Made by a program: the position numbers and the translations under genes. Positions 1 to 8,162 of a stretch of DNA of 8,162 bases are shown here, piece by piece; position 1 is the stretch's first letter; each line of letters opens with the position of its first letter. This DNA comes from a virus (Duplodnaviria; Heunggongvirae; Uroviricota; Caudoviricetes): positions 1 to 8,162 of the IMG/VR virus record IMGVR_UViG_2671180770_000010. One strand, given 5' to 3'. Under the pieces are notes generated by a model. That model ran no database searches and was not told the DNA's origin. It was given only the letters and a program-made list of their open reading frames with translations.

Positions 1-40
1 GTTGACGAAGACGATTCAGATTTTCTTCTTTTGTTGCCAT
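1..40 (-). CDS. 5' end of a lambda gpFI-like DNA-packaging protein gene (partial, runs off the window)
   Basis: Minus-strand ATG at 38-40 with GGAGG at 46-50 upstream. The 13 translated residues MATKEENLNRLRQ resemble the lambda FI N-terminus as I recall it. It lies directly downstream of a capsid gene and terminator, as in lambda E-FI. Only 13 codons are visible. Confidence 0.4.
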   Translation of the reverse strand, partial: MATKEENLNRLRQ

Positions 41-54
41 CTCAGCCTCCTGTG

Positions 55-83
55 AAAAAAGACACGGGGGCATTTCGCCCCCG
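55..83 (-). terminator. Rho-independent terminator after the truncated capsid gene
   Basis: On the minus strand, stem CGGGGGC, loop GAAAT, stem GCCCCCG, then TGTC and a T6 run. It begins 8 nt after the stop at 92-94. Confidence 0.6.
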
Positions 84-91
84 CTCACGGA

Positions 92-883
92 TTATTTCAC
101 CTGCACCACCACAAACTCATCCGGATCCGGCAGCACCATCAGCGGTGCGGACTGCGTCATGGTGAATTCACGGGCCGGATCGCCCACAGTCAGCCAGTGT
201 TTCGGATAACGGGAAGAGGCCACCACACCTTCGGACAACGCCTGCGCATCCTGAATGGCACCATAGCAACGAATGCCCTCTGCTGCCGTATTCCCCAGGA
301 CCAGTGTGCCCACCGGCAGATAACGTTTTTCGGTACCGTCGTCTGCCACATAAGACGTTTTCGCCACCACAATGGCCAGATCACCGTAATACCCTTTGAA
401 AGACACCACCGCTCCCAGGTCTTTCACTGCCGTTTCGAGTTGTGAATTTGAGCCGCGACGGGTATCCAGTTTTTCGCGGAACAGCTTAAAGCCATTCAGC
501 AGACGCCAGACCGTACCGTCCATAATGGCAATATTTACAAGACCGCTGGCCTGATCGCAGTAAAGGTCAATATCATGCGTCGGATCAAACGTATCACGGT
601 CCTGCTCAGACCATTTTTTACCGTCGGCCTGCTCAATGTTATTTCCTTCAGAGCGTCCGAAATCCACCTCGACCGTGTCAAACTGTTCCCCTTCCATGGT
701 GTATTTGCCATACAGCACGGCATTCACCGCCTGCATTTCTTCCACCTGGACAATGGCGTGCTCTTCCTGTTTGAGGTTATCGGTAATGATACGCAGACGA
801 CGGTAGGCCGGGTCGTTCAGCTGAGCCGGATCTTCACCAGGAAGGCGCTCAACCGCCTGCTGGTAATTAAATTCGTGTTTGGG
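92..883 (-). pseudogene. N-terminally truncated lambda gpE-family major capsid protein (roughly residues 80-341 retained)
   Basis: The translation carries gpE-like blocks (VEEMQAV, KLDTRRGSNS.LETAVKDLG, GDPAREFTM.QSAPLM, PDEFV.VQ). Hand translation upstream of the listed start shows the homology continuing to 883 (PKHEFNYQQAVERLPGEDPAQLNDPAYRRLRII). It then ends at an in-frame TAA at 884-886 with no start codon. Candidate internal starts are GTG 743-745 and ATG 734-736. Confidence 0.8.
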
Positions 884-1019
884 TTACATGAGTCAAATAT
901 GAAAGGATGTGAATGATTTGATTACGTTTTAGCTATAGAATTGAAATGGAAAATCCTTGAATGCAATACAACGTGCAATACATGGATGAAAACCATCACT
1001 CATTTAACAAGAGGAATCT

Positions 1020-1925
1020 ATGCGCTCACCCAACAGAATGCATGAACGCTCAACATTTTATAAGTATATGTCGTTGAATACCGCGAAGATTGTTCTTGAT
1101 TCATGCAGCCTTAGATGGAGTTCTCCGGTCCTATTTAATGACCCTTTTGATGTTCCAAGAGAAGTTATGCCTGGTATTAACGAAATTAATATTGGCAAAG
1201 CTTTAGCCCGCAAGTTAATAGCGGAGTTGATTACCCCCAGAGAAGACATACAAAATTTAAATCCTAGAATTAGAACAATGCTAAGTGATTTCCAAAAGTC
1301 ATTTCCTTTAGGCATACCCGCAGGATTAATTGAAAGATTTCAAGAAATGGTAAACATTCCACCAGTTGGGATTGGCGCTCCTGCGGCAATACAAGAAATG
1401 AAAGATGTCTGGCGAGGAATGCTTAATAACAGAAGGATTTTGTGTTTATCTGAGAGCCCTATAATCACTCCTATGTGGAATCACTATGCCGATAAATATA
1501 AAGGTATAGTTATCGAATTTGATTGTGTAGACTTTCTGGATAGCGCTTGGTTAATAGCCAAACCTATGAAATACACAGATGAAATGCCTCTAACTCACAC
1601 TGCTGAAGGGATGGCCGAGTTGCTTTTCATGCCAGACAATAAGTCAATTGAATATATCAATAATGAGATAATATTCATAAAAACAGAAGAATGGGCATAT
1701 GAAAGAGAGTGGAGAATTTCAACCTACGCTAGGCCAAATAGCACTGGTCAATATAGCGACTTAAAATTTCACCCTTTTGAGTTAAAATCTGTAATACTTG
1801 GTCCTCTTTTTGATGCCAGCGAGTTCGATGAAGTCGCATCACTAGTTAAGATGTATCCAAGAGCGAAATTATTTAAAAGTTCATTTGGGAACGACAGAAA
1901 AATATCCATAGTACCACTACCTTAA
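1020..1925 (+). CDS. Hypothetical 301-aa protein, DUF2971-like (tentative family assignment); candidate accessory or anti-phage cargo gene
   Basis: Long ORF with AGAGGA 5 nt before the ATG. It is strongly AT-rich compared with its flanks and is convergent with the neighbouring phage genes. Motifs YKY..L......L......SP.LFNDPFD, LCLSE and W.HYAD.YKG..IEFD match my recollection of DUF2971. Confidence 0.7.
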   Translation: MRSPNRMHERSTFYKYMSLNTAKIVLDSCSLRWSSPVLFNDPFDVPREVMPGINEINIGKALARKLIAELITPREDIQNLNPRIRTMLSDFQKSFPLGIPAGLIERFQEMVNIPPVGIGAPAAIQEMKDVWRGMLNNRRILCLSESPIITPMWNHYADKYKGIVIEFDCVDFLDSAWLIAKPMKYTDEMPLTHTAEGMAELLFMPDNKSIEYINNEIIFIKTEEWAYEREWRISTYARPNSTGQYSDLKFHPFELKSVILGPLFDASEFDEVASLVKMYPRAKLFKSSFGNDRKISIVPLP

Positions 1926-1956
1926 AAGGTCAAATGCTTTTGACAAATAAAATCTA

Positions 1957-1980
1957 TCGCCAGTTTTACTGGCGACTTTT
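1957..1980 (+). terminator. Rho-independent terminator downstream of the 301-aa gene
   Basis: Stem TCGCCAGT (1957-1964), loop TTT, stem ACTGGCGA (1968-1975), then CTTTT. It sits between the two convergent genes. Confidence 0.5.
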
Positions 1981-2031
1981 AAGCAACAAAGAACCACCTA
2001 AGCACTCTTCCTACCTATGGTTTCATTTGTT

Positions 2032-2583
2032 TTAACTTCGCTGATTATCCTTGATATACCTTTCAGCCATATCTGGAATGTTATCTGAGATCTGGTAAGC
2101 TCGAATAAATGCTTTACTGACCTCCATCTTAATGAAGTCCTGATACCGTTTTTCCATGCCAGGAAACTGTCGACAGATCGCAAGTGGAAGACTATCAATG
2201 ATTGCTCCAACTTCCCCAGTTAATTTCGACAAGGCATAAGTCGCAAATGCAGTGTCAATTACCTCACCTGTTTCGCTGGCATTCTTCAGTTCCTGTGCGT
2301 CGGCCTGCGCACGCGTAAGTCGATGGCGTTCATACTCAATAGTCCCTGGCAGGAGATCTGCCTCGCTGGCCTGCCGCAGTTCTTCAACCTCCCGGCGCAG
2401 CTTTTCGTTCTCAATTTCAGCATCCCTTTCGGCATACCATTTTATGACGGCGGCAGAGTCATAAAGCACCTCATTACCCTTGCCACCGCCTCGCAGAACG
2501 GGCATTCCCTGCTCCTGCCAGTTCTGAATGGTACGGATACTCGCACCGAAAATGTCAGCCAGCTGCTTTTTGTTGGCTTCCAT
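2032..2583 (-). CDS. Terminase small subunit, lambda Nu1 family (mosaic, divergent C-terminal part)
   Basis: The first ~103 residues are almost identical to lambda Nu1 as recalled (MEANKKQLADIFGASIRTIQNWQEQGMPVLRGGGKGNEVLYDSAAVIKWYAERDAEIENEKLRREVEELRQASEADL...). The remainder is recognisably related but divergent and AT-rich. A lambda-like cos lies immediately upstream and the length (183 aa) matches Nu1 (181 aa). Confidence 0.9.
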   Translation of the reverse strand: MEANKKQLADIFGASIRTIQNWQEQGMPVLRGGGKGNEVLYDSAAVIKWYAERDAEIENEKLRREVEELRQASEADLLPGTIEYERHRLTRAQADAQELKNASETGEVIDTAFATYALSKLTGEVGAIIDSLPLAICRQFPGMEKRYQDFIKMEVSKAFIRAYQISDNIPDMAERYIKDNQRS

Positions 2584-2610
2584 TGTTCATTCCACGGACA
2601 AAACCAGAGA

Positions 2611-2800
2611 AAGGAAACGACAGAGGCCAAAAAGCCTGTTTTTAGCACCTGTCGTTTCCTTTCTTTTTAGGGGGTGTTTTTAATAAAAACATTAAGTTAC
2701 GGCGAAGAAGAACGGAAACGCCTTAAACAGGAAAATTTTCACAAATAGCGAAAAACTGCGCGCCTGACGCCCCGTAACGTTCTGGATCACCGGAAAGGAC
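2611..2800 (-). other. Lambda-type cos site: conserved cosB (about 2611-2758), variant cosN (2761-2772), cosQ-like flank (about 2779-2800)
   Basis: The minus-strand sequence GTTACG-GGGCGTCAGGCG-CGCAGTTTTTCGCTATTTGTGAAAATTTTCCTGTTTAAGGCGTTTCCGTTCTTCTTCG...GAAAGGAAACGACAGGTGCT...CTGTCGTTTCCTTTC...GTGGAATGAACAATG parallels the lambda cos/Nu1 leader as I recall it. The 12-nt cosN equivalent is GGGCGTCAGGCG against lambda GGGCGGCGACCT. Confidence 0.7.
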
Positions 2801-2828
2801 CCGCCAGCCAGAGCGGGCCCTAATTTCA

Positions 2829-3212
2829 TCAACCAATCAGCTTATAGCGACCATCCCGTGCATTGCGGCGTACACGCTCAATCTTGAGGCATAGCGCCGC
2901 ATCTGGCTTTTTTGGGACAGGTACGCGGCAATATTCAGAAGCGCGAGGAATATTATTTATCCAGTCGATCACTTCACTTAAATACCAGGCCTTACGCCCT
3001 TCCGTAACCTGCACACGCTCCGGGAACTCTCCACTAGCCTCAAGGTTTAGCAGTGTACGACGACTCAGGGTTGTAATTTCCATCACCTGATTCATATCAA
3101 CAAGGCGCTCGCTTAAACACATTTTGTCAGCGATAGCTTTTAATTCCTCTACAGCTGGATTCGGGTACATCATTTCGGCAATTGGCTTAAGGTCATTGTA
3201 ATCATTCTGCAT
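2829..3212 (-). CDS. AlpA/Xis-like HTH DNA-binding protein (127 aa), last gene of the capsid operon and adjacent to cos
   Basis: The C-terminal segment EITTLSRRTLLNLEASGEFPERVQVTEGRKAWYLSEVIDWI fits the AlpA-family MerR-like HTH pattern. The start ATG at 3210-3212 follows AGGGGGA, just after the upstream gene's TAA. Confidence 0.6.
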   Translation of the reverse strand: MQNDYNDLKPIAEMMYPNPAVEELKAIADKMCLSERLVDMNQVMEITTLSRRTLLNLEASGEFPERVQVTEGRKAWYLSEVIDWINNIPRASEYCRVPVPKKPDAALCLKIERVRRNARDGRYKLIG

Positions 3213-3223
3213 TGTATCCCCCT

Positions 3224-3565
3224 TTACACACGAGCCAGCGGCTGAACAGAAATACCTGAGCCAACAAACGCTGCAACCTTTACTGACAGTTCTTTAACAG
3301 ACTCAGGCCAGTTCAGAGCATCAACATTTAAGACACCTGTCTTATAGACCTGAGCCTGTGTTTTTTTCGCGGTGTCGATTTGTACAGCGGAAACATAAAC
3401 CGCTTTACCTACGCTCGAACCATCCCATACTACCAGTGCACCTGTTGCATCTTCCTGCATCAGTGGCGTAAATGCAGGAATTACCCCTTTATTAGCTGAA
3501 AATATCCCCAGCGTAGTCACCAGTGCTTCAGTGCCAGCCATGAGTTCAGTGTAATGAGTAGCCAT
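3224..3565 (-). CDS. Head decoration protein, lambda gpD family
   Basis: 113 aa against lambda D at 110 aa. Shared blocks include TPLMQEDATGALVVWDG (lambda TPLMLDTSSRKLVAWDG), YKTGVLNVDALNWPES (lambda YKSGTFRYEDVLWPEA) and AFVGSGISVQ (lambda AFAGTAISIV). A GGGGGAG ribosome-binding site sits between the upstream stop and the ATG. Confidence 0.8.
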   Translation of the reverse strand: MATHYTELMAGTEALVTTLGIFSANKGVIPAFTPLMQEDATGALVVWDGSSVGKAVYVSAVQIDTAKKTQAQVYKTGVLNVDALNWPESVKELSVKVAAFVGSGISVQPLARV

Positions 3566-3574
3566 TGCTCCCCC

Positions 3575-4615
3575 TTAGCCAATGCGAACGGTAACAAAAC
3601 GATTGATGCGGGCCGGTATTGGCTGTGGTGCTGAATGTGTCTGCACATATTCAATAGCCGGATCACCAGGCACAATATAGTTTTTCGGTGCAAGTTCGGC
3701 TTTAGTCAGCCCCATTCGGATTAGCTCCGGATCCTGAATACCGCCATAGGCGACAATCCCCTGAAGAGCCGTATTGCCAAGCACCATCAAATCAGGATCA
3801 AGGAAATGTTTTTCTGTTCCGTCCTCGTCGGTATAACGCCCGCTGTAAACAACAATCGCAACATCGCCCATATACCCTTTAAAACTCACCGAATCACCAA
3901 GGTCTTTAAGGGCCGTTTCCAGTTCGGAATTAGAACCACGACGGGTATCCAGAGCCTCTTTTATAGCTCTGAATGAACGGTATTTCTTCCATACATTACC
4001 GCCCATAATGATAATATTAGTGACGCCCTCACTAAATTCTGTGTAGCTCTCAATATCATCATTTGGATCAAAAGTTTCTTTATCCTTACCTGACCACTCA
4101 GCACCGCCAGACTGAGTGATGATATTTTGTGGTTTAATATTCCAGTCCAGCTCATAACGTTCAATACCATCGCCCTCAATGATATTTTTCCCCGTTGTGA
4201 TTGCCTGAACAGCAAGCCATTCAATACGTGCACGAATAGCTTTAGCTTGATTTACAATCGCCTGTTTAACTTTAATATTACGCGCCCCAAAAGCATTGTA
4301 TTGCTCAGGTGATACACCAGCAGGGCGCACAGCTAACTTATTTGGATCAATGCTGCTTTTCGGCTTCATATAGCCTGGACGAATTGTTTTTGATTCGTAC
4401 CCTTCGTCACGTGAAACTTTACTACCCACCATAGGAGAACAAAACGCTGCAATTGGGATATTTGGATCGTCGATTGTATCAAGAATAATATCGCGCGATT
4501 CAAACATTACCGAGCGAGTAAAAAACAAACTGGTAAACAACGCATTTAGTTGTTTTTGTACATCTACAGCATTAACCACCTGTACAAGCTGAGTAGGCGA
4601 ATATAAATCAACCAT
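3575..4615 (-). CDS. Major capsid protein, lambda gpE family (complete, 346 aa)
   Basis: gpE-like blocks run the full length (LYSPTQL..., RPGYMKPK, ITQSGGAEWS, DTRRGSNSELETALKDLG, GDPA.E). I moved the start to the ATG at 4613-4615, which has AAGAGG 6 nt upstream. The 404-aa ORF in the track is an upstream over-extension. Confidence 0.85.
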   Translation of the reverse strand: MVDLYSPTQLVQVVNAVDVQKQLNALFTSLFFTRSVMFESRDIILDTIDDPNIPIAAFCSPMVGSKVSRDEGYESKTIRPGYMKPKSSIDPNKLAVRPAGVSPEQYNAFGARNIKVKQAIVNQAKAIRARIEWLAVQAITTGKNIIEGDGIERYELDWNIKPQNIITQSGGAEWSGKDKETFDPNDDIESYTEFSEGVTNIIIMGGNVWKKYRSFRAIKEALDTRRGSNSELETALKDLGDSVSFKGYMGDVAIVVYSGRYTDEDGTEKHFLDPDLMVLGNTALQGIVAYGGIQDPELIRMGLTKAELAPKNYIVPGDPAIEYVQTHSAPQPIPARINRFVTVRIG

Positions 4616-4789
4616 ACGCATCCTCTTTGCATTCATTAAAAATAATTGTGGATATATGCTATCACCGATATTTGTCATGCGAACACATGCAACCGAGTGC
4701 AATGTTGTATAAAGTTTTGGGGTGACAACTTCAGTGCGGACAATTAGTGTTAATATCTTCACTCCCTTTGGTCGGGATTTATGTAGCAT

Positions 4790-4821
4790 GCCGGAAAATT
4801 TATTTTTTCCGGCCTTTTTTT
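4790..4821 (+). terminator. Plus-strand intrinsic-terminator-like hairpin between the SSB and capsid genes
   Basis: Stem GCCGGAAAA (4790-4798), loop TTTATT, stem TTTTCCGGC (4805-4813), then C and a T7 run. The T-run follows the hairpin only on the plus strand, which is antisense to the surrounding genes. Confidence 0.4.
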
Positions 4822-4832
4822 ATTGGCAATAT

Positions 4833-5282
4833 TTAAAACGGGATATCATCTCCCCATTGCTCATTATCTCCCACTGGTGGCTGGCTTCCTTGCTGATCTG
4901 CCTGTTGTTTTGCTCTGTTCAGTGCGTCAGTAGCCTGCCCCTGTTGGCCTTTTTTGCCGCCCGGTCGCACCGATCGCGCACTGATTACGCTGTCTGCGAT
5001 AACCTGCCAGCCCTGCCGCGTTTCGCCGTTCTGTCCAGTCCACTGGCTCATCTGCATGTTACCCGCCACGCTTAGGAGTTCGCCTTTGTGATGCTTTGCC
5101 AGCGCGTCGGCTTGTCTGCCAAACGCCAGGACAGATAACCACATCGTCGCCTGACCGTCATCCGACTGACTGCAGGGCAGTGATACCGCCATACGCGCCA
5201 GCGTCATGGGGGTGCCCTTGCTGGTCTGTTTTGTCTGCGGGTCGTCCACCAACCGCCCGTAAACTGATATTTGCGCCGTCAT
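4833..5282 (-). CDS. Single-stranded DNA-binding protein (SSB family), 149 aa
   Basis: OB-fold-like N-terminal region (ISVYGRLVDDPQ...TKQTSKGTPMT..., WLSVLAFGRQAD), a Gly/Gln-rich linker and the canonical acidic tail DDIPF. Its ATG overlaps the upstream gene's TGA as ATGA at 5279-5282. Confidence 0.8.
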   Translation of the reverse strand: MTAQISVYGRLVDDPQTKQTSKGTPMTLARMAVSLPCSQSDDGQATMWLSVLAFGRQADALAKHHKGELLSVAGNMQMSQWTGQNGETRQGWQVIADSVISARSVRPGGKKGQQGQATDALNRAKQQADQQGSQPPVGDNEQWGDDIPF

Positions 5283-5524
5283 GCTGCCTGCTCTCCGGAC
5301 TTAATATTGATTGTTGTCACTTCCTCCGCTTCAGCAATCTCCCGTTCGGTCAGAGTGGCAAAATTTGCAGCCGCCGTTGTCATGAATGCGCTAATCAGTT
5401 CGGGATGTGCTTTCGCGTATCCTTCCCCGGCGTTGCGGTCGATGATTTTTATCGACACCCTTAACCAGTGTTCCGTCAAATCAAGGGCGTGCGATTGTGA
5501 TTTTTTTGTGTGCTTCGCTGTCAT
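5279..5524 (-). CDS. Hypothetical 81-aa protein, translationally coupled to the SSB gene
   Basis: ORF sits directly downstream of the iteron region and overlaps the SSB start by ATGA. I do not recognise a family. Confidence 0.5.
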   Translation of the reverse strand: MTAKHTKKSQSHALDLTEHWLRVSIKIIDRNAGEGYAKAHPELISAFMTTAAANFATLTEREIAEAEEVTTINIKSGEQAA

Positions 5525-5570
5525 AGGCTTTATCTCACAGCAGTAAATTAAAATTTTTGCGTTTTAACCC

Positions 5571-5798
5571 TTCACCTGTTCACCTTTTGATATTTTCTCT
5601 TTTAATTCATAATGTTAATGGGTGAACAGTTTCACAAAAACTATTCACCAACTGTTCACCACTGTTCACCCTTGAAGCTCAATAAACAATCAAAAAGGTG
5701 AACAGTGAATAGTTTGGTGAACAGTTCATAAATAACTGTTCACCCTATAATATACTGATATAAAAGATATTTATGACAGGGTGAACAGTGGTGAACAG
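5571..5798. repeat. Iteron array (P4 ori/crr-type TGTTCACC repeats); putative replication origin
   Basis: About ten copies of CTGTTCACC or its complement GGTGAACAG in both orientations (5576-5584, 5621-5629, 5652-5660, 5662-5670, 5697-5705, 5716-5724, 5736-5744, 5780-5788, 5790-5798, plus degenerate copies). An AT-rich stretch lies at 5745-5779. The array is adjacent to the primase gene. Confidence 0.75.
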
Positions 5799-5811
5799 TT
5801 ATTCCATAAGT

Positions 5812-7632
5812 TTAATTTTTGCTATCGTCATTAGTGACCGATACACATGATGGCATCCAGTCTTCTGATTCCTCCGTCAGTGTCACGTTTGAACGCAAAC
5901 CGTGCTTCGTTTTCCGTTTCATATACTCCCTGCCATATTCCGCCATTGCCCCCGGCATATCTTTACCGAAGCGCGTCAGTGTTACAGGTTTACCAAACCC
6001 ATGTGCCCTCATATAAGCCAGATAGGCATGATAGAGATACCTGCGTGGGCTGAATGGCACAATTTCAGCATTACCCACTAACAGGCCATCACACATTACC
6101 GATGCCATGAGATAGCCGCAGAAGTCCACCAGCGAATCCCCCTCTCGCTTTATCGCCAGTGCTTCTTCAGATTTCTGCTGCTCATATAACAGGCGTCTGG
6201 CTTCGTCCTGATCAGCAAACCGTGTAAGCAGATGACGAATCACTACCGCCAGCTCACCTTCTATTTTTTCCGCCAGCATCGAATCGCGTTCGTTCTCCGG
6301 TACAACTTCCGAAAAATTGAATATCACCCGACGACGTGAGATCCCCCCGCTGCGGTCACTGAATGACATGGCGTTATTGTTAACCACCAGCACTACTGCC
6401 GGAATACGCGTTGAATAGGGGGCTTTGTGTTTCGGGTCAATTGCCACCTTGTCACCGCCTGTAATGGCCTTAATCCCTGCCCCATCACCAGCGTAGCGGG
6501 TCATATCTGGCATGATAATCAGCGAAAAGCCAACCACTAACGCACGTTCCCTTGCATCTTCCAGCGCCTTCATGCTTGCTGATACTGTATTAGCCTTACC
6601 CGCCAGCATGGTGCAAATCTCCGCCATCACGCTTTTACCACTTCCCCCCGGCCCTGTTACCTCAATGAATAACTGCCAGTCGTACCGGTTCGCCAGCACC
6701 ATGAATAATGCCGCCAGTACGCGATCTGCCTTGCGGTCATTCTCAGCCACCGAACGGCGCAACCACTTCCAGAAATTCGGCGCATGTGTTGCCAGCGTTT
6801 CCCCCTCTGCTGGTGGGCTGAAAGGTAATTCACTGGCAATTAACAACCAGTCGTTTTTGTTATGCTCCCGAAAATTACCTGTTCTGGTATCAAATACCCC
6901 GTTACTGAATCCAATCAGGTTACGGGCTGTATTCCCCATTACAGGCAAACTTAACTTCATGGTATCTACCGCCGATTTAATGGCGTTCTGCGAATAGCTG
7001 ATCTCCGCATCAATGAAAATCTGCGCCATAGCACGCTGTAACTCTTTATCCTGAACCGGCTCCCATACAACGCCGTTGTAATGATGAACGGTGTCAGAGT
7101 CGGCATTGATTGCCAGTTCGCCGCCGTAATGTGCCAGGAGAACTTCACCGCGCTGGCTGGCCCCCATCTGATTCAACGCCAAAGATGAAGCACGCTCGTC
7201 ATTTTTGCGCTCTGCCTTCTTCACTGGCAGTTCAATCACCAGACTTTCCCCATGCTCCGCTTCAGCTTTTAGGCCGACAAGGCGCGGAGTCCAGTCTTCA
7301 GGCTCTCGATCAACAAAGCTACGGTAACAACGTGCTTCCTTTACGCCTGCAATAGCAAGTAATGTCGCAACCTTCGTCAGACTTTTCTCTGCAATCTTTC
7401 CGGCACGATAAACACGCACATAATGACGGCCTTCATCGATAATTTGCATATCATCCAGGTTTTCCAGTTGTTCCGTACCCAGAATTACTGGTGGTGTATC
7501 ATCTGCTGCAATATGCTTACCTGCCCATTCATTCCATTCTTTTGCATGGCTCCAGGCATCACTGCCAGCAAAAATGATGACTTCCGTCATTTTGTCGCGC
7601 GGTTGGTATTTTAAGTTCGGAGCACGTTTCAT
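5812..7632 (-). CDS. P4 alpha-like replication protein (phage/plasmid primase-helicase family; pri-rep)
   Basis: 606-aa ORF with the Walker A motif GPGGSGKS (EVTGPGGSGKSV) in its central region. Its size, architecture and the adjacent TGTTCACC iterons are typical of P4-family and PICI primase/helicases. The ATG overlaps the upstream ORF stop as ATGA at 7629-7632. Confidence 0.85.
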   Translation of the reverse strand: MKRAPNLKYQPRDKMTEVIIFAGSDAWSHAKEWNEWAGKHIAADDTPPVILGTEQLENLDDMQIIDEGRHYVRVYRAGKIAEKSLTKVATLLAIAGVKEARCYRSFVDREPEDWTPRLVGLKAEAEHGESLVIELPVKKAERKNDERASSLALNQMGASQRGEVLLAHYGGELAINADSDTVHHYNGVVWEPVQDKELQRAMAQIFIDAEISYSQNAIKSAVDTMKLSLPVMGNTARNLIGFSNGVFDTRTGNFREHNKNDWLLIASELPFSPPAEGETLATHAPNFWKWLRRSVAENDRKADRVLAALFMVLANRYDWQLFIEVTGPGGSGKSVMAEICTMLAGKANTVSASMKALEDARERALVVGFSLIIMPDMTRYAGDGAGIKAITGGDKVAIDPKHKAPYSTRIPAVVLVVNNNAMSFSDRSGGISRRRVIFNFSEVVPENERDSMLAEKIEGELAVVIRHLLTRFADQDEARRLLYEQQKSEEALAIKREGDSLVDFCGYLMASVMCDGLLVGNAEIVPFSPRRYLYHAYLAYMRAHGFGKPVTLTRFGKDMPGAMAEYGREYMKRKTKHGLRSNVTLTEESEDWMPSCVSVTNDDSKN

Positions 7633-7916
7633 TTGTTACCTCCGGCAACTAACATTGCCCGAATTTTGCGGATATAGCCTGCGGCACGCCTCTGATTATC
7701 TGTCTTGCAATTTTTTACCAGAATGAAATCTCTTTCGAACTGCTGACGCGGCATAACACATTCAAAATCATAACCATCACGCAAATAAGAGACACGACGA
7801 TCATCAACCGAAATAATCTTTACCCGATAGCCATAGCTGTCTTTGAAAATATCCCCAAGGCTGATTTTTGAATGAGTTTGACCGCTGGCAATAAAGCCAG
7901 AAAATTTATTTTTCAT
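7629..7916 (-). CDS. Hypothetical 95-aa protein, translationally coupled to the primase gene
   Basis: ORF has GGAG 8 nt upstream of the ATG at 7914-7916 and an ATGA stop/start overlap with the primase gene. No family recognised. Confidence 0.5.
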   Translation of the reverse strand: MKNKFSGFIASGQTHSKISLGDIFKDSYGYRVKIISVDDRRVSYLRDGYDFECVMPRQQFERDFILVKNCKTDNQRRAAGYIRKIRAMLVAGGNK

Positions 7917-8162
7917 TTTTTATTCTCCGGTATAGCTCTGATCGTGTATTTTTATAGCTTCATCCAGCTCTTTGATGACAGGATCAAGTAACGTAATTAA
8001 CGCTCCAGCTAAATTAGCATCCCGTTCATCGTGTTCCGCATTTGTTGTCCCATCAAGCCAGGTTGGGCTTTGTTGAATAAATAAGATTTCGTGCGAACGA
8101 CCCTGTAGCTGGCTGGATTTTCAGGCAATACGCACGCTTTCTGGCATCCCAGCCTTTGTCAT

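Follow-up and report, generated by a model that had tools for sequence, protein, structure and literature searches.

A chimeric small-terminase-like gene in a helper-embedded Escherichia coli satellite joins a lambda-type DNA-binding half to a satellite-lineage C-terminal half

In Gram-negative bacteria, cos-type satellites are thought to take over the lambda terminase either through Rpp proteins or by merely carrying a cos site. At the locus analyzed here, a satellite carries a terminase small subunit (TerS) of the Nu1 type that no large subunit (TerL) accompanies. The gene, which we call TerS', lies in a stretch of 8,162 nucleotides (nt) from a tailed-phage record (IMG/VR IMGVR_UViG_2671180770_000010, positions 1 to 8,162), hereafter the window; it stands directly downstream of a lambda-like cos site, and its protein is nearly that of phage lambda in the first half and divergent in the second. 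The original prediction, made from the sequence alone, took the gene for an orphan TerS with a changed TerL partner that could redirect or block helper packaging. We favor, with modest confidence, the reading that TerS' is a redundant satellite small-terminase subunit made by recombination between helper and satellite.

By sequence, TerS' belongs to the Nu1 family. It matches positions 1-162 of 164 in the Pfam profile Phage_Nu1 (PF07471, E 8e-82), its residues 1-181 match phrog_57 (E 2e-64), and RefSeq labels the gene 'terminase small subunit' in E. coli strain 980-2, the closest complete genome (L001). Cognate cosB R-sites are found directly upstream; at the 3′ end no large terminase gene follows or overlaps, and a terminator and a convergent DUF2971 gene stand there instead (Table 1). 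Across codons 1-102, 301 of 306 nt (98.4%) and 100 of 102 residues are the same as in lambda nu1, the changes being V3A and Q78L, whereas codons 103-183 match lambda at 122 of 237 aligned nt (51.5%) with approximately 40% amino acid identity (Fisher test between the halves, p = 1.5e-43). GC content drops from 54.9% in the N-half to 41.5% in the C-half, and the block 872-2277 as a whole has 37.8%. The crossover is bounded by the last upstream lambda mismatch at gene nt 252 and the first downstream mismatch at codon 103, and homology to Klebsiella begins at window position 2295, inside this interval. The C-half aligns with lambda gpNu1 without gaps, save for a two-residue C-terminal extension, and retains every family-invariant residue together with the IP....YI motif.

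Residues 1-98 of TerS' align with the solved structure 6HN7_B (E 4.6e-58) and residues 1-68 with 1J9I, while a search of the PDB returned no solved structure spanning a Nu1 C-half. The predicted structure of TerS' comprises a winged helix-turn-helix (wHTH; H5-12, H16-24, wing, H43-74) followed by two long helices, 82-139 and 145-181, which include the C-half; this model (predicted local distance difference test score, pLDDT, 79; predicted template-modeling score, pTM, 0.38) has no bearing on TerL binding.

In the cos region, R3 is identical to lambda at 18 of 18 positions (R-sites were placed by taking lambda bp 50-65 for R3, per PMC9026076), the remaining cosB is 92% identical, and R2 and R1 are conserved. 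The stretch from cosQ to the nick shows 87% identity, and the 12-nt cohesive end GGGCGTCAGGCG differs at 5 of 12 positions from the GGGCGGCGACCT of lambda and the resident helper. The GGGCGTCAGGCG end is common to the sister satellites L007, L051 and L052, regardless of the cosB that they carry. This variant disrupts part of the cosN dyad symmetry, and further cohesive-end variants, GGGCGGCAGACT and GGGCGTCGACCT, occur in other satellites. No second cos site of the kind present in EcCICFT073 was found in the window. The architecture described in the original prediction is thus largely borne out: a lambda-like first ~310 nt, a breakpoint near 2270 with an AT-rich divergent remainder, a C-half that is still Nu1-like, a gene end at a terminator and convergent cargo gene, and overall an orphan Nu1-type TerS combining a helper-type DNA-binding half and cosB with a distinct C-half. 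Its description of the cos leader as nearly identical to lambda was too strong, given the figures for the cosB remainder, the cosQ-to-nick stretch and the cohesive end.

The window is the right arm of a helper-embedded satellite of the phage-inducible chromosomal island (PICI) type, inserted in gene E of a lambdoid prophage. At approximately 96% identity, 17 complete E. coli genomes align with 80% or more of the window. In L001 the element is ~11 kb long and runs in the order integrase, AlpA, primase, SSB, E', D', a second AlpA-like gene, cos, TerS' and DUF2971. It is inserted, in the same orientation, into gene E, which encodes the major capsid protein of a lambda-like prophage; an E fragment stands on either side, and the 3′ fragment is followed by lambda-like FI, Z, U and V genes. 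Its attL and attR share the 10-bp core AACCCAAGCA, which agrees with Tommasini et al. (bioRxiv 10.1101/2022.07.18.500453). Integrase, AlpA, a primase-helicase with a probable origin, co-orientation and size are all features of PICIs and helper-embedded satellites that the element shares, profile matches bear out the primase domains and SSB, and the L001 annotation of the satellite contains no TerL, portal, protease or tail genes. The helper in L001 encodes a Nu1 identical to that of lambda and a gpA that is 99.7% identical, with nu1 and A located ~14.5 kb upstream of the satellite gene on the same strand. In the two genomes in which helper gpA was checked against lambda, identity was 99.7% and 88%, and both helpers are lambda-type. 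The orphan state of TerS' is therefore explained by its location in a helper-embedded satellite, and the predicted absence of TerL in cis is correct for the satellite but not for the prophage that surrounds it.

Window positions 2295-872 are collinear with a Klebsiella variicola locus (L002) at 85.6% nucleotide identity over 1426 bp, from the nu1 motif through attR, and there the C-half copy is likewise followed by the same 301-residue DUF2971 gene. At the amino acid level the C-half is ~70% identical to the Klebsiella remnants and 69% identical to a Kosakonia satellite copy, with dN/dS values of 0.32 and 0.12, respectively. A tblastn search of 50,697 phage records yielded no C-half closer than lambda's own 40%. 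Exhaustive HMMER searches of 1.84 billion protein representatives found only two closer clusters, both short (98 and 132 residues) and from E. coli and Klebsiella; no full-length representative among them had a C-half above 46% identity, and the one at 46% is itself in a satellite module. In a scan of GTDB species genomes, the C-half never adjoined a TerL. A phage source was rejected, because all searches, including a word-indexed search of 5.8 billion proteins, gave satellites and remnants only. In every context examined (among them L001, the Klebsiella remnants, Kosakonia, L054/55 and L056; the contexts cover P0010, P0083, P0127 and P0174, with P0086 left out), the C-half was in a satellite or satellite remnant with no TerL. 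Since dN/dS is low and the invariant residues are kept, these sequence comparisons indicate a constrained, real branch of the Nu1 C-domain that is satellite-only and travels with the cargo arm.

The same C-half is found behind several N-terminal halves. The Kosakonia satellite, also in gene E, carries a full-length TerS-like gene of 171 residues with the same C-half and a different N-terminal wHTH and cosB. P0010 (C-half 46% identical), P0127 and P0174 share the same E'-D'-AlpA-cos-TerS' module; the latter two combine an older, diverged lambda-like DNA-binding domain (DBD; ~80% amino acid identity) with a cosB that has diverged everywhere except in its lambda-type R boxes. In P0083, a phage-21-type cos and DBD are joined at the same motif to an identical C-half and DUF2971. 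At the locus of this phage-21-type fusion (L057, Logan contig ERR2538163_422, 1240-3060), the upstream neighbor is the helper-prophage gene DUF1398, and the P0083-type fusion looks like a deletion recombinant between helper nu1 and satellite nu1', an event that would have taken out the head genes of the helper and the greater part of the satellite. The Klebsiella proteins of 113-132 residues were considered as a decoy family of TerS lacking the DBD; this was rejected, as they are 5′-truncated, in L002 the open frame extends farther upstream through sequence resembling Nu1, and frameshifts interrupt some of the copies. In K. variicola (L002 5999-9318), a TerS' remnant and DUF2971 adjoin genes for an OLD-family ATPase/TOPRIM protein and a UvrD-type helicase, a Gabija-like pair, and decayed satellite right arms appear to persist inside defense islands. 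A reverse chimera was observed in Superficieibacter (L009 5728-6291), where an alternative DBD and cosB are joined to a lambda-like C-half (79% identical to lambda in the central region and 60% in the tail) in a satellite-like element without TerL.

The gene occupies a conserved satellite slot: E', D', second AlpA, cos, TerS'. RppA (144 residues; L050 7660-8094) fills the same slot in EcCICFT073, where it follows the capsid and decoration genes, a small gene and cos1. The E. coli O157:H7 PICI beside phoQ has in the RppA slot a full-length TerS-like gene of 180 residues (L053 6001-6543), with an alternative wHTH and a matching alternative cosB, as does L051 (2989-3531); of 5426 complete E. coli genomes, 692 have sequences of this 180-residue type. 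The sister satellite L051 shares 97.6% of the backbone and combines the satellite cosN variant with the alternative cosB and an alternative-DBD TerS'. Other sisters, with different cargo, have a lambda-type cosB and only a 13-codon nu1 stub, or no nu1. As judged from these sequences, elements of this family are assembled from three interchangeable units: the backbone together with cosQ-cosN, the cosB/DBD pair, and the cargo together with the C-half. The co-variation of cosB class and DBD class argues that TerS' proteins read their own cosB.

Because terS homologs borne by satellites are a recognized PICI component (PMC6092414, PMC10085698), this kind of gene is already known. It resembles RppA and RppC of E. 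coli PICIs (EcCICFT073 c1503; PMC6739421) in lying in a PICI-type satellite slot directly downstream of cos, in having a TerS-type wHTH, and in belonging to an element without TerL that depends on the helper terminase. Rpp proteins, however, which bind helper TerS and block phage packaging, are 144-153 residues long, share only the TerS DBD fold (~21-25% identity), end in an unrelated coiled-coil dimerization region and are paired with a PICI-specific cosB that they recognize through their DBD, whereas TerS' is a full-length Nu1 homolog of 183 residues whose DBD is identical to the helper's, whose C-half is of the Nu1 type and whose neighboring cosB is helper-type. A classic Rpp identity was accordingly ruled out by length, C-terminal sequence and cosB type. 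TerS' is 21% identical to RppA in alignment, RppA matches phrog_57 at residues 7-47 only, and PDB searches did not recover the RppC chain with either TerS' (E up to 0.01) or the Kosakonia alternative-DBD homolog (E up to 10). The 127-residue gene upstream of cos was also considered as a hidden Rpp and was rejected as a member of the AlpA family (PDB 8C3T, phrog_2790).

Compared with lambda gpNu1, TerS' has the nearly identical first 102 residues and the same location directly downstream of cosQ-cosN-cosB, but it is a satellite gene that lacks the overlapping A gene and has a C-half at ~40%, a tail at 30%, and the variant cohesive end. Like pac-type TerS of Staphylococcus aureus pathogenicity islands (SaPIs) and the PICI 'terS homolog' (PMC6092414, PMC10085698), it belongs to a satellite without TerL and lies after the capsid gene and before accessory genes; unlike SaPI TerS, which reads a satellite-specific pac site and redirects packaging, its recognition module is the helper's own and its packaging is cos-type. 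The DBD of TerS' and the cosB beside it are both helper-type; the sister element L051 pairs an alternative DBD with an alternative cosB. The helper-embedded satellite 11capE, named by Tommasini, Mageeney and Williams, is alike in its gene-E site, type of 10-bp att core, gene order and size, and its excision after helper induction has been published, without transfer (bioRxiv 10.1101/2022.07.18.500453). According to that paper, 11capE has no terS and the only sequence that it has in common with its helper is a cos-like segment of 258 bp, whereas the present variant has a full-length TerS-like open reading frame (ORF). In the literature searched, we found no description of a helper-identical cosB and DBD fused to a satellite-only C-half, nor of the modular series that surrounds it.

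In the reading that we favor, two modules would have recombined within the nearly invariant AQADAQELKNA-coding tract: cosB with codons 1-102, which are the helper's and confer lambda-type specificity, and the right arm of a related satellite from codon 103 to attR, which would bring in the satellite-only C-half, the terminator and the DUF2971 cargo. Upon induction, helper Nu1 and gpA would recognize the lambda-type R3-I1-R2-R1 of the satellite and cut its cosN. TerS', with the same DNA-binding and dimerization domain, would bind the same sites and mix with helper Nu1, and its C-half, diverged yet conserved, would probably still let it join the terminase assembly. TerS' shows no change in the recognition helix, in the wing or at the interface residues I11, F12, G13, S43, A44, I47 and A51 (named in PMC6739421), from which we infer binding to cosB and mixed dimers with helper Nu1. 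Since the satellite cosB and DBD are the helper's own, cosB should be unable to distinguish satellite from helper DNA; TerS' would thus add no satellite-specific targeting, and its loss would not stop the element. This speaks against the redirection of helper packaging that had been proposed. Nor did the supposed change of TerL partner find support, as the C-half was seen only in TerL-less satellites and remnants and both helpers checked are lambda-type.

A modular function is suggested by the chimeric TerS of a lambda/21 hybrid phage, in which the N-terminal half sets phage-21 DNA-binding specificity and the C-terminal half lambda TerL-binding specificity (PMC9026076). In that chimera, by contrast, the C-half has its cognate TerL, whereas TerS' sets a satellite-lineage C-half against a lambda-type helper TerL. 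The separability of the halves, the retained IP....YI motif and invariant residues, and the two predicted long helices are points in favor of a C-half that binds lambda-type gpA.

Evidence that the element can do without the full-length protein comes from the alleles. Codon 22 is changed from TGG to TAG (W22 amber; window 2518-2520) in 17 of 32 complete genomes with this C-half, and at least one amber-bearing element is otherwise intact. Together with the sisters that have a 13-codon stub or no nu1, these alleles indicate that full-length TerS' is dispensable. Intact 183-residue alleles are nevertheless present on several hundred contigs; among those of the E. coli chimera, variation is confined to the N-half, and this pattern fits ongoing exchange with helper nu1 genes. 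We further observed that a synonymous A72G change, present in all satellite alleles, makes AGGAG (2512-2516; AGGAA in lambda) 6 nt before the ATG of Met27 (2503-2505), and several pipelines annotate 157-residue ORFs starting at Met27. A product lacking the DBD, made by re-initiation at Met27, is possible.

Several observations weigh against the redundancy reading. In lambda-type small terminases, TerL is bound by the C-terminal ~40 residues, and the last 43 residues of TerS' are only 30% identical to lambda Nu1. The phage-21-type tail is equally far from lambda, and its cognate TerL N-terminus has diverged too (38% identity), whereas the N-terminus of the helper TerL is lambda-identical. Direct binding of TerS' to helper gpA is doubtful for this reason, the tail having diverged while its would-be partner has not. 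Purifying selection on a C-half without a cognate TerL suggests a role beyond redundancy. Moreover, the amber allele may yield the 157-residue Met27 product, in which case 'dispensable' might cover the DNA-binding part only.

These points bear on the alternatives. One, which we consider unlikely, is that TerS' is an interference factor, an Rpp-like block without redirection: by mixing with helper Nu1 or occupying cosB, with a diverged C-half that fails to engage lambda-type gpA correctly, it would poison the terminase and lower helper yield. Its DBD and dimer interface, identical to those of the helper, its RppA slot and its satellite-only C-half under purifying selection would all suit such a factor, as would a tail that has moved as far from lambda as that of the phage-21 type, in which the N-terminus of the cognate TerL differs as well; Rpp proteins themselves work by mimicry of the TerS DBD (PMC6739421). 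A poisoned terminase would, however, harm the satellite equally, given its helper-type cosB, and a helper-embedded satellite relies on its own helper. The amber mutation has also removed the DBD-encoding start in those 17 carrier genomes, which weakens the block to helper packaging raised in the original prediction, and retention of all family-invariant C-half residues favors a working Nu1 C-domain over a dead one.

An equally tentative alternative is an inert recombination scar, left behind when cargo arms were exchanged at the conserved nu1 motif, with a protein that is roleless and decaying. The frequent amber allele, a frameshifted allele (P0085), the truncated or frameshifted Klebsiella copies, the sisters that get by with a stub or no nu1, and the differing cargo that sister elements have here (DUF262+HEPN, an Abi family protein or a restriction endonuclease) are what such a scar would leave. 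It is harder to reconcile with the several hundred contigs bearing intact alleles, a C-half dN/dS far under 1, the maintenance of a full-length TerS' slot across genera and the related full-length genes in 692 of 5426 E. coli genomes.

It is also conceivable, at a similarly low probability, that the satellite-only C-half is a dedicated hijacking domain whose contact with the helper terminase, through gpA or Nu1, is non-canonical, with the DBD/cosB module freely swapped; lambda-type, 21-type and two alternative N-terminal types are seen in the TerS' family. If so, it might favor satellite concatemers with the variant cosN, or E'/D' capsids, or poison helper packaging, and amber alleles would, by starting at Met27, make a version of this effector without the DBD. 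This would constitute a third strategy of terminase hijacking beside Rpp and SaPI TerS, with living intermediates between phage TerS and Rpp.

Ordinary lambdoid mosaicism, in which TerS' would be a normal variant of phage Nu1 with a cognate TerL that is no longer seen, is effectively refuted, for although lambdoid phages are mosaic and the N and C modules of Nu1 are separable (PMC9026076), the phage records held no nearer C-half, the best full-length match among the 1.84 billion proteins was a satellite gene, no context examined had an adjacent TerL, and a close homolog beside its own terL, which the original prediction had named as the finding that would make this ordinary mosaicism, was not found in any of these searches.

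The coordinates of the features in the window are summarized in Table 1. The satellite carries its own E and D homologs while splitting the helper E gene, and the E' ORF can be read as 404 residues from an upstream ATG, whereas the RefSeq start gives 346. The second AlpA gene is in the same position in L008, L009, L049, L054 and L056, and was present in every satellite of the family examined. Just downstream of the primase gene, an AT-rich stretch (5575-5804) contains approximately 10 copies of the iteron GGTGAACAGT in both orientations and is probably the satellite replication origin. At the position of the DUF2971 gene, sister satellites have other defense-like cargo (DUF262+HEPN, an Abi/abortive-infection protein or a restriction endonuclease), and the region from TerS' to attR therefore looks like a cargo hotspot.

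Table 1. Features of the satellite right arm and the flanking helper gene, in window coordinates
Feature	Position	Strand	Basis
3′ fragment of helper major capsid gene E	92-880	-	L001 label 'major capsid protein, missing N-terminus'
Right-arm module shared with Klebsiella variicola: C-half of TerS', terminator, DUF2971 gene and satellite end	872-2295		L002 10127-11549
attR core (AACCCAAACA), satellite right end in helper gene E	876-885	-	att comparison in L001
DUF2971 cargo gene, 301 residues, candidate anti-phage system PDC-S31	1020-1925	+	PF11185; PADLOC PDC-S31, E 2.5e-32
Hairpin and T-run terminator between convergent TerS' and cargo genes	1956-1976	-	hairpin conserved in Klebsiella L002
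Chimeric satellite small-terminase-like gene (TerS'), 183 residues + stop	2032-2583	-	ORF; PF07471; phrog_57 over full length
Satellite-lineage C-half, codons 103-183: oligomerization and presumed TerL-binding regions	2035-2277	-	sequence comparison; dN/dS; predicted helices
Crossover interval, 56-nt tract coding for the conserved RLTRAQADAQELKNA motif	2276-2331	-	flanking lambda mismatches
Helper (lambda)-type N-half, codons 1-102: wHTH DNA-binding and dimerization domain, linker	2278-2583	-	alignment to lambda and helper Nu1; PDB 6HN7_B, 1J9I
Lambda-type cosB: R3 (2708-2723), I1 region, R2 (~2649-2664), R1 (~2604-2619)	2604-2723	-	alignment to lambda
cosN cohesive-end variant GGGCGTCAGGCG (lambda and helper: GGGCGGCGACCT)	2761-2772	-	alignment to lambda
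cosQ (GGGTCCT)	2796-2802	-	alignment to lambda right end; pattern unique in window
Second AlpA-family HTH gene, 127 residues, directly upstream of cos	2829-3212	-	PF05930; phrog_2790; PDB 8C3T AlpA
Satellite decoration protein D'	3224-3565	-	PF02924 / PF03864 profile matches for D'/E' pair; L001 annotation
Satellite major capsid protein E'	3575-4789 (ORF)	-	PF02924 / PF03864 profile matches for D'/E' pair; L001 annotation

Taken by itself, this gene is a recombination product that brings nothing new to packaging specificity and is already broken in about half of its natural copies; the wider TerS' series in the Rpp slot is more interesting than this half-decayed allele. In the elements examined, the Rpp slot holds full-length Nu1-type TerS genes in which the cosB/DBD module and the arm of C-half and cargo are swapped independently of each other, even with the helper. 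The series offers natural chimeras for mapping the part of TerS that contacts TerL, and gives concrete form to the question, left open in PMC6739421, of where Rpp proteins originate.

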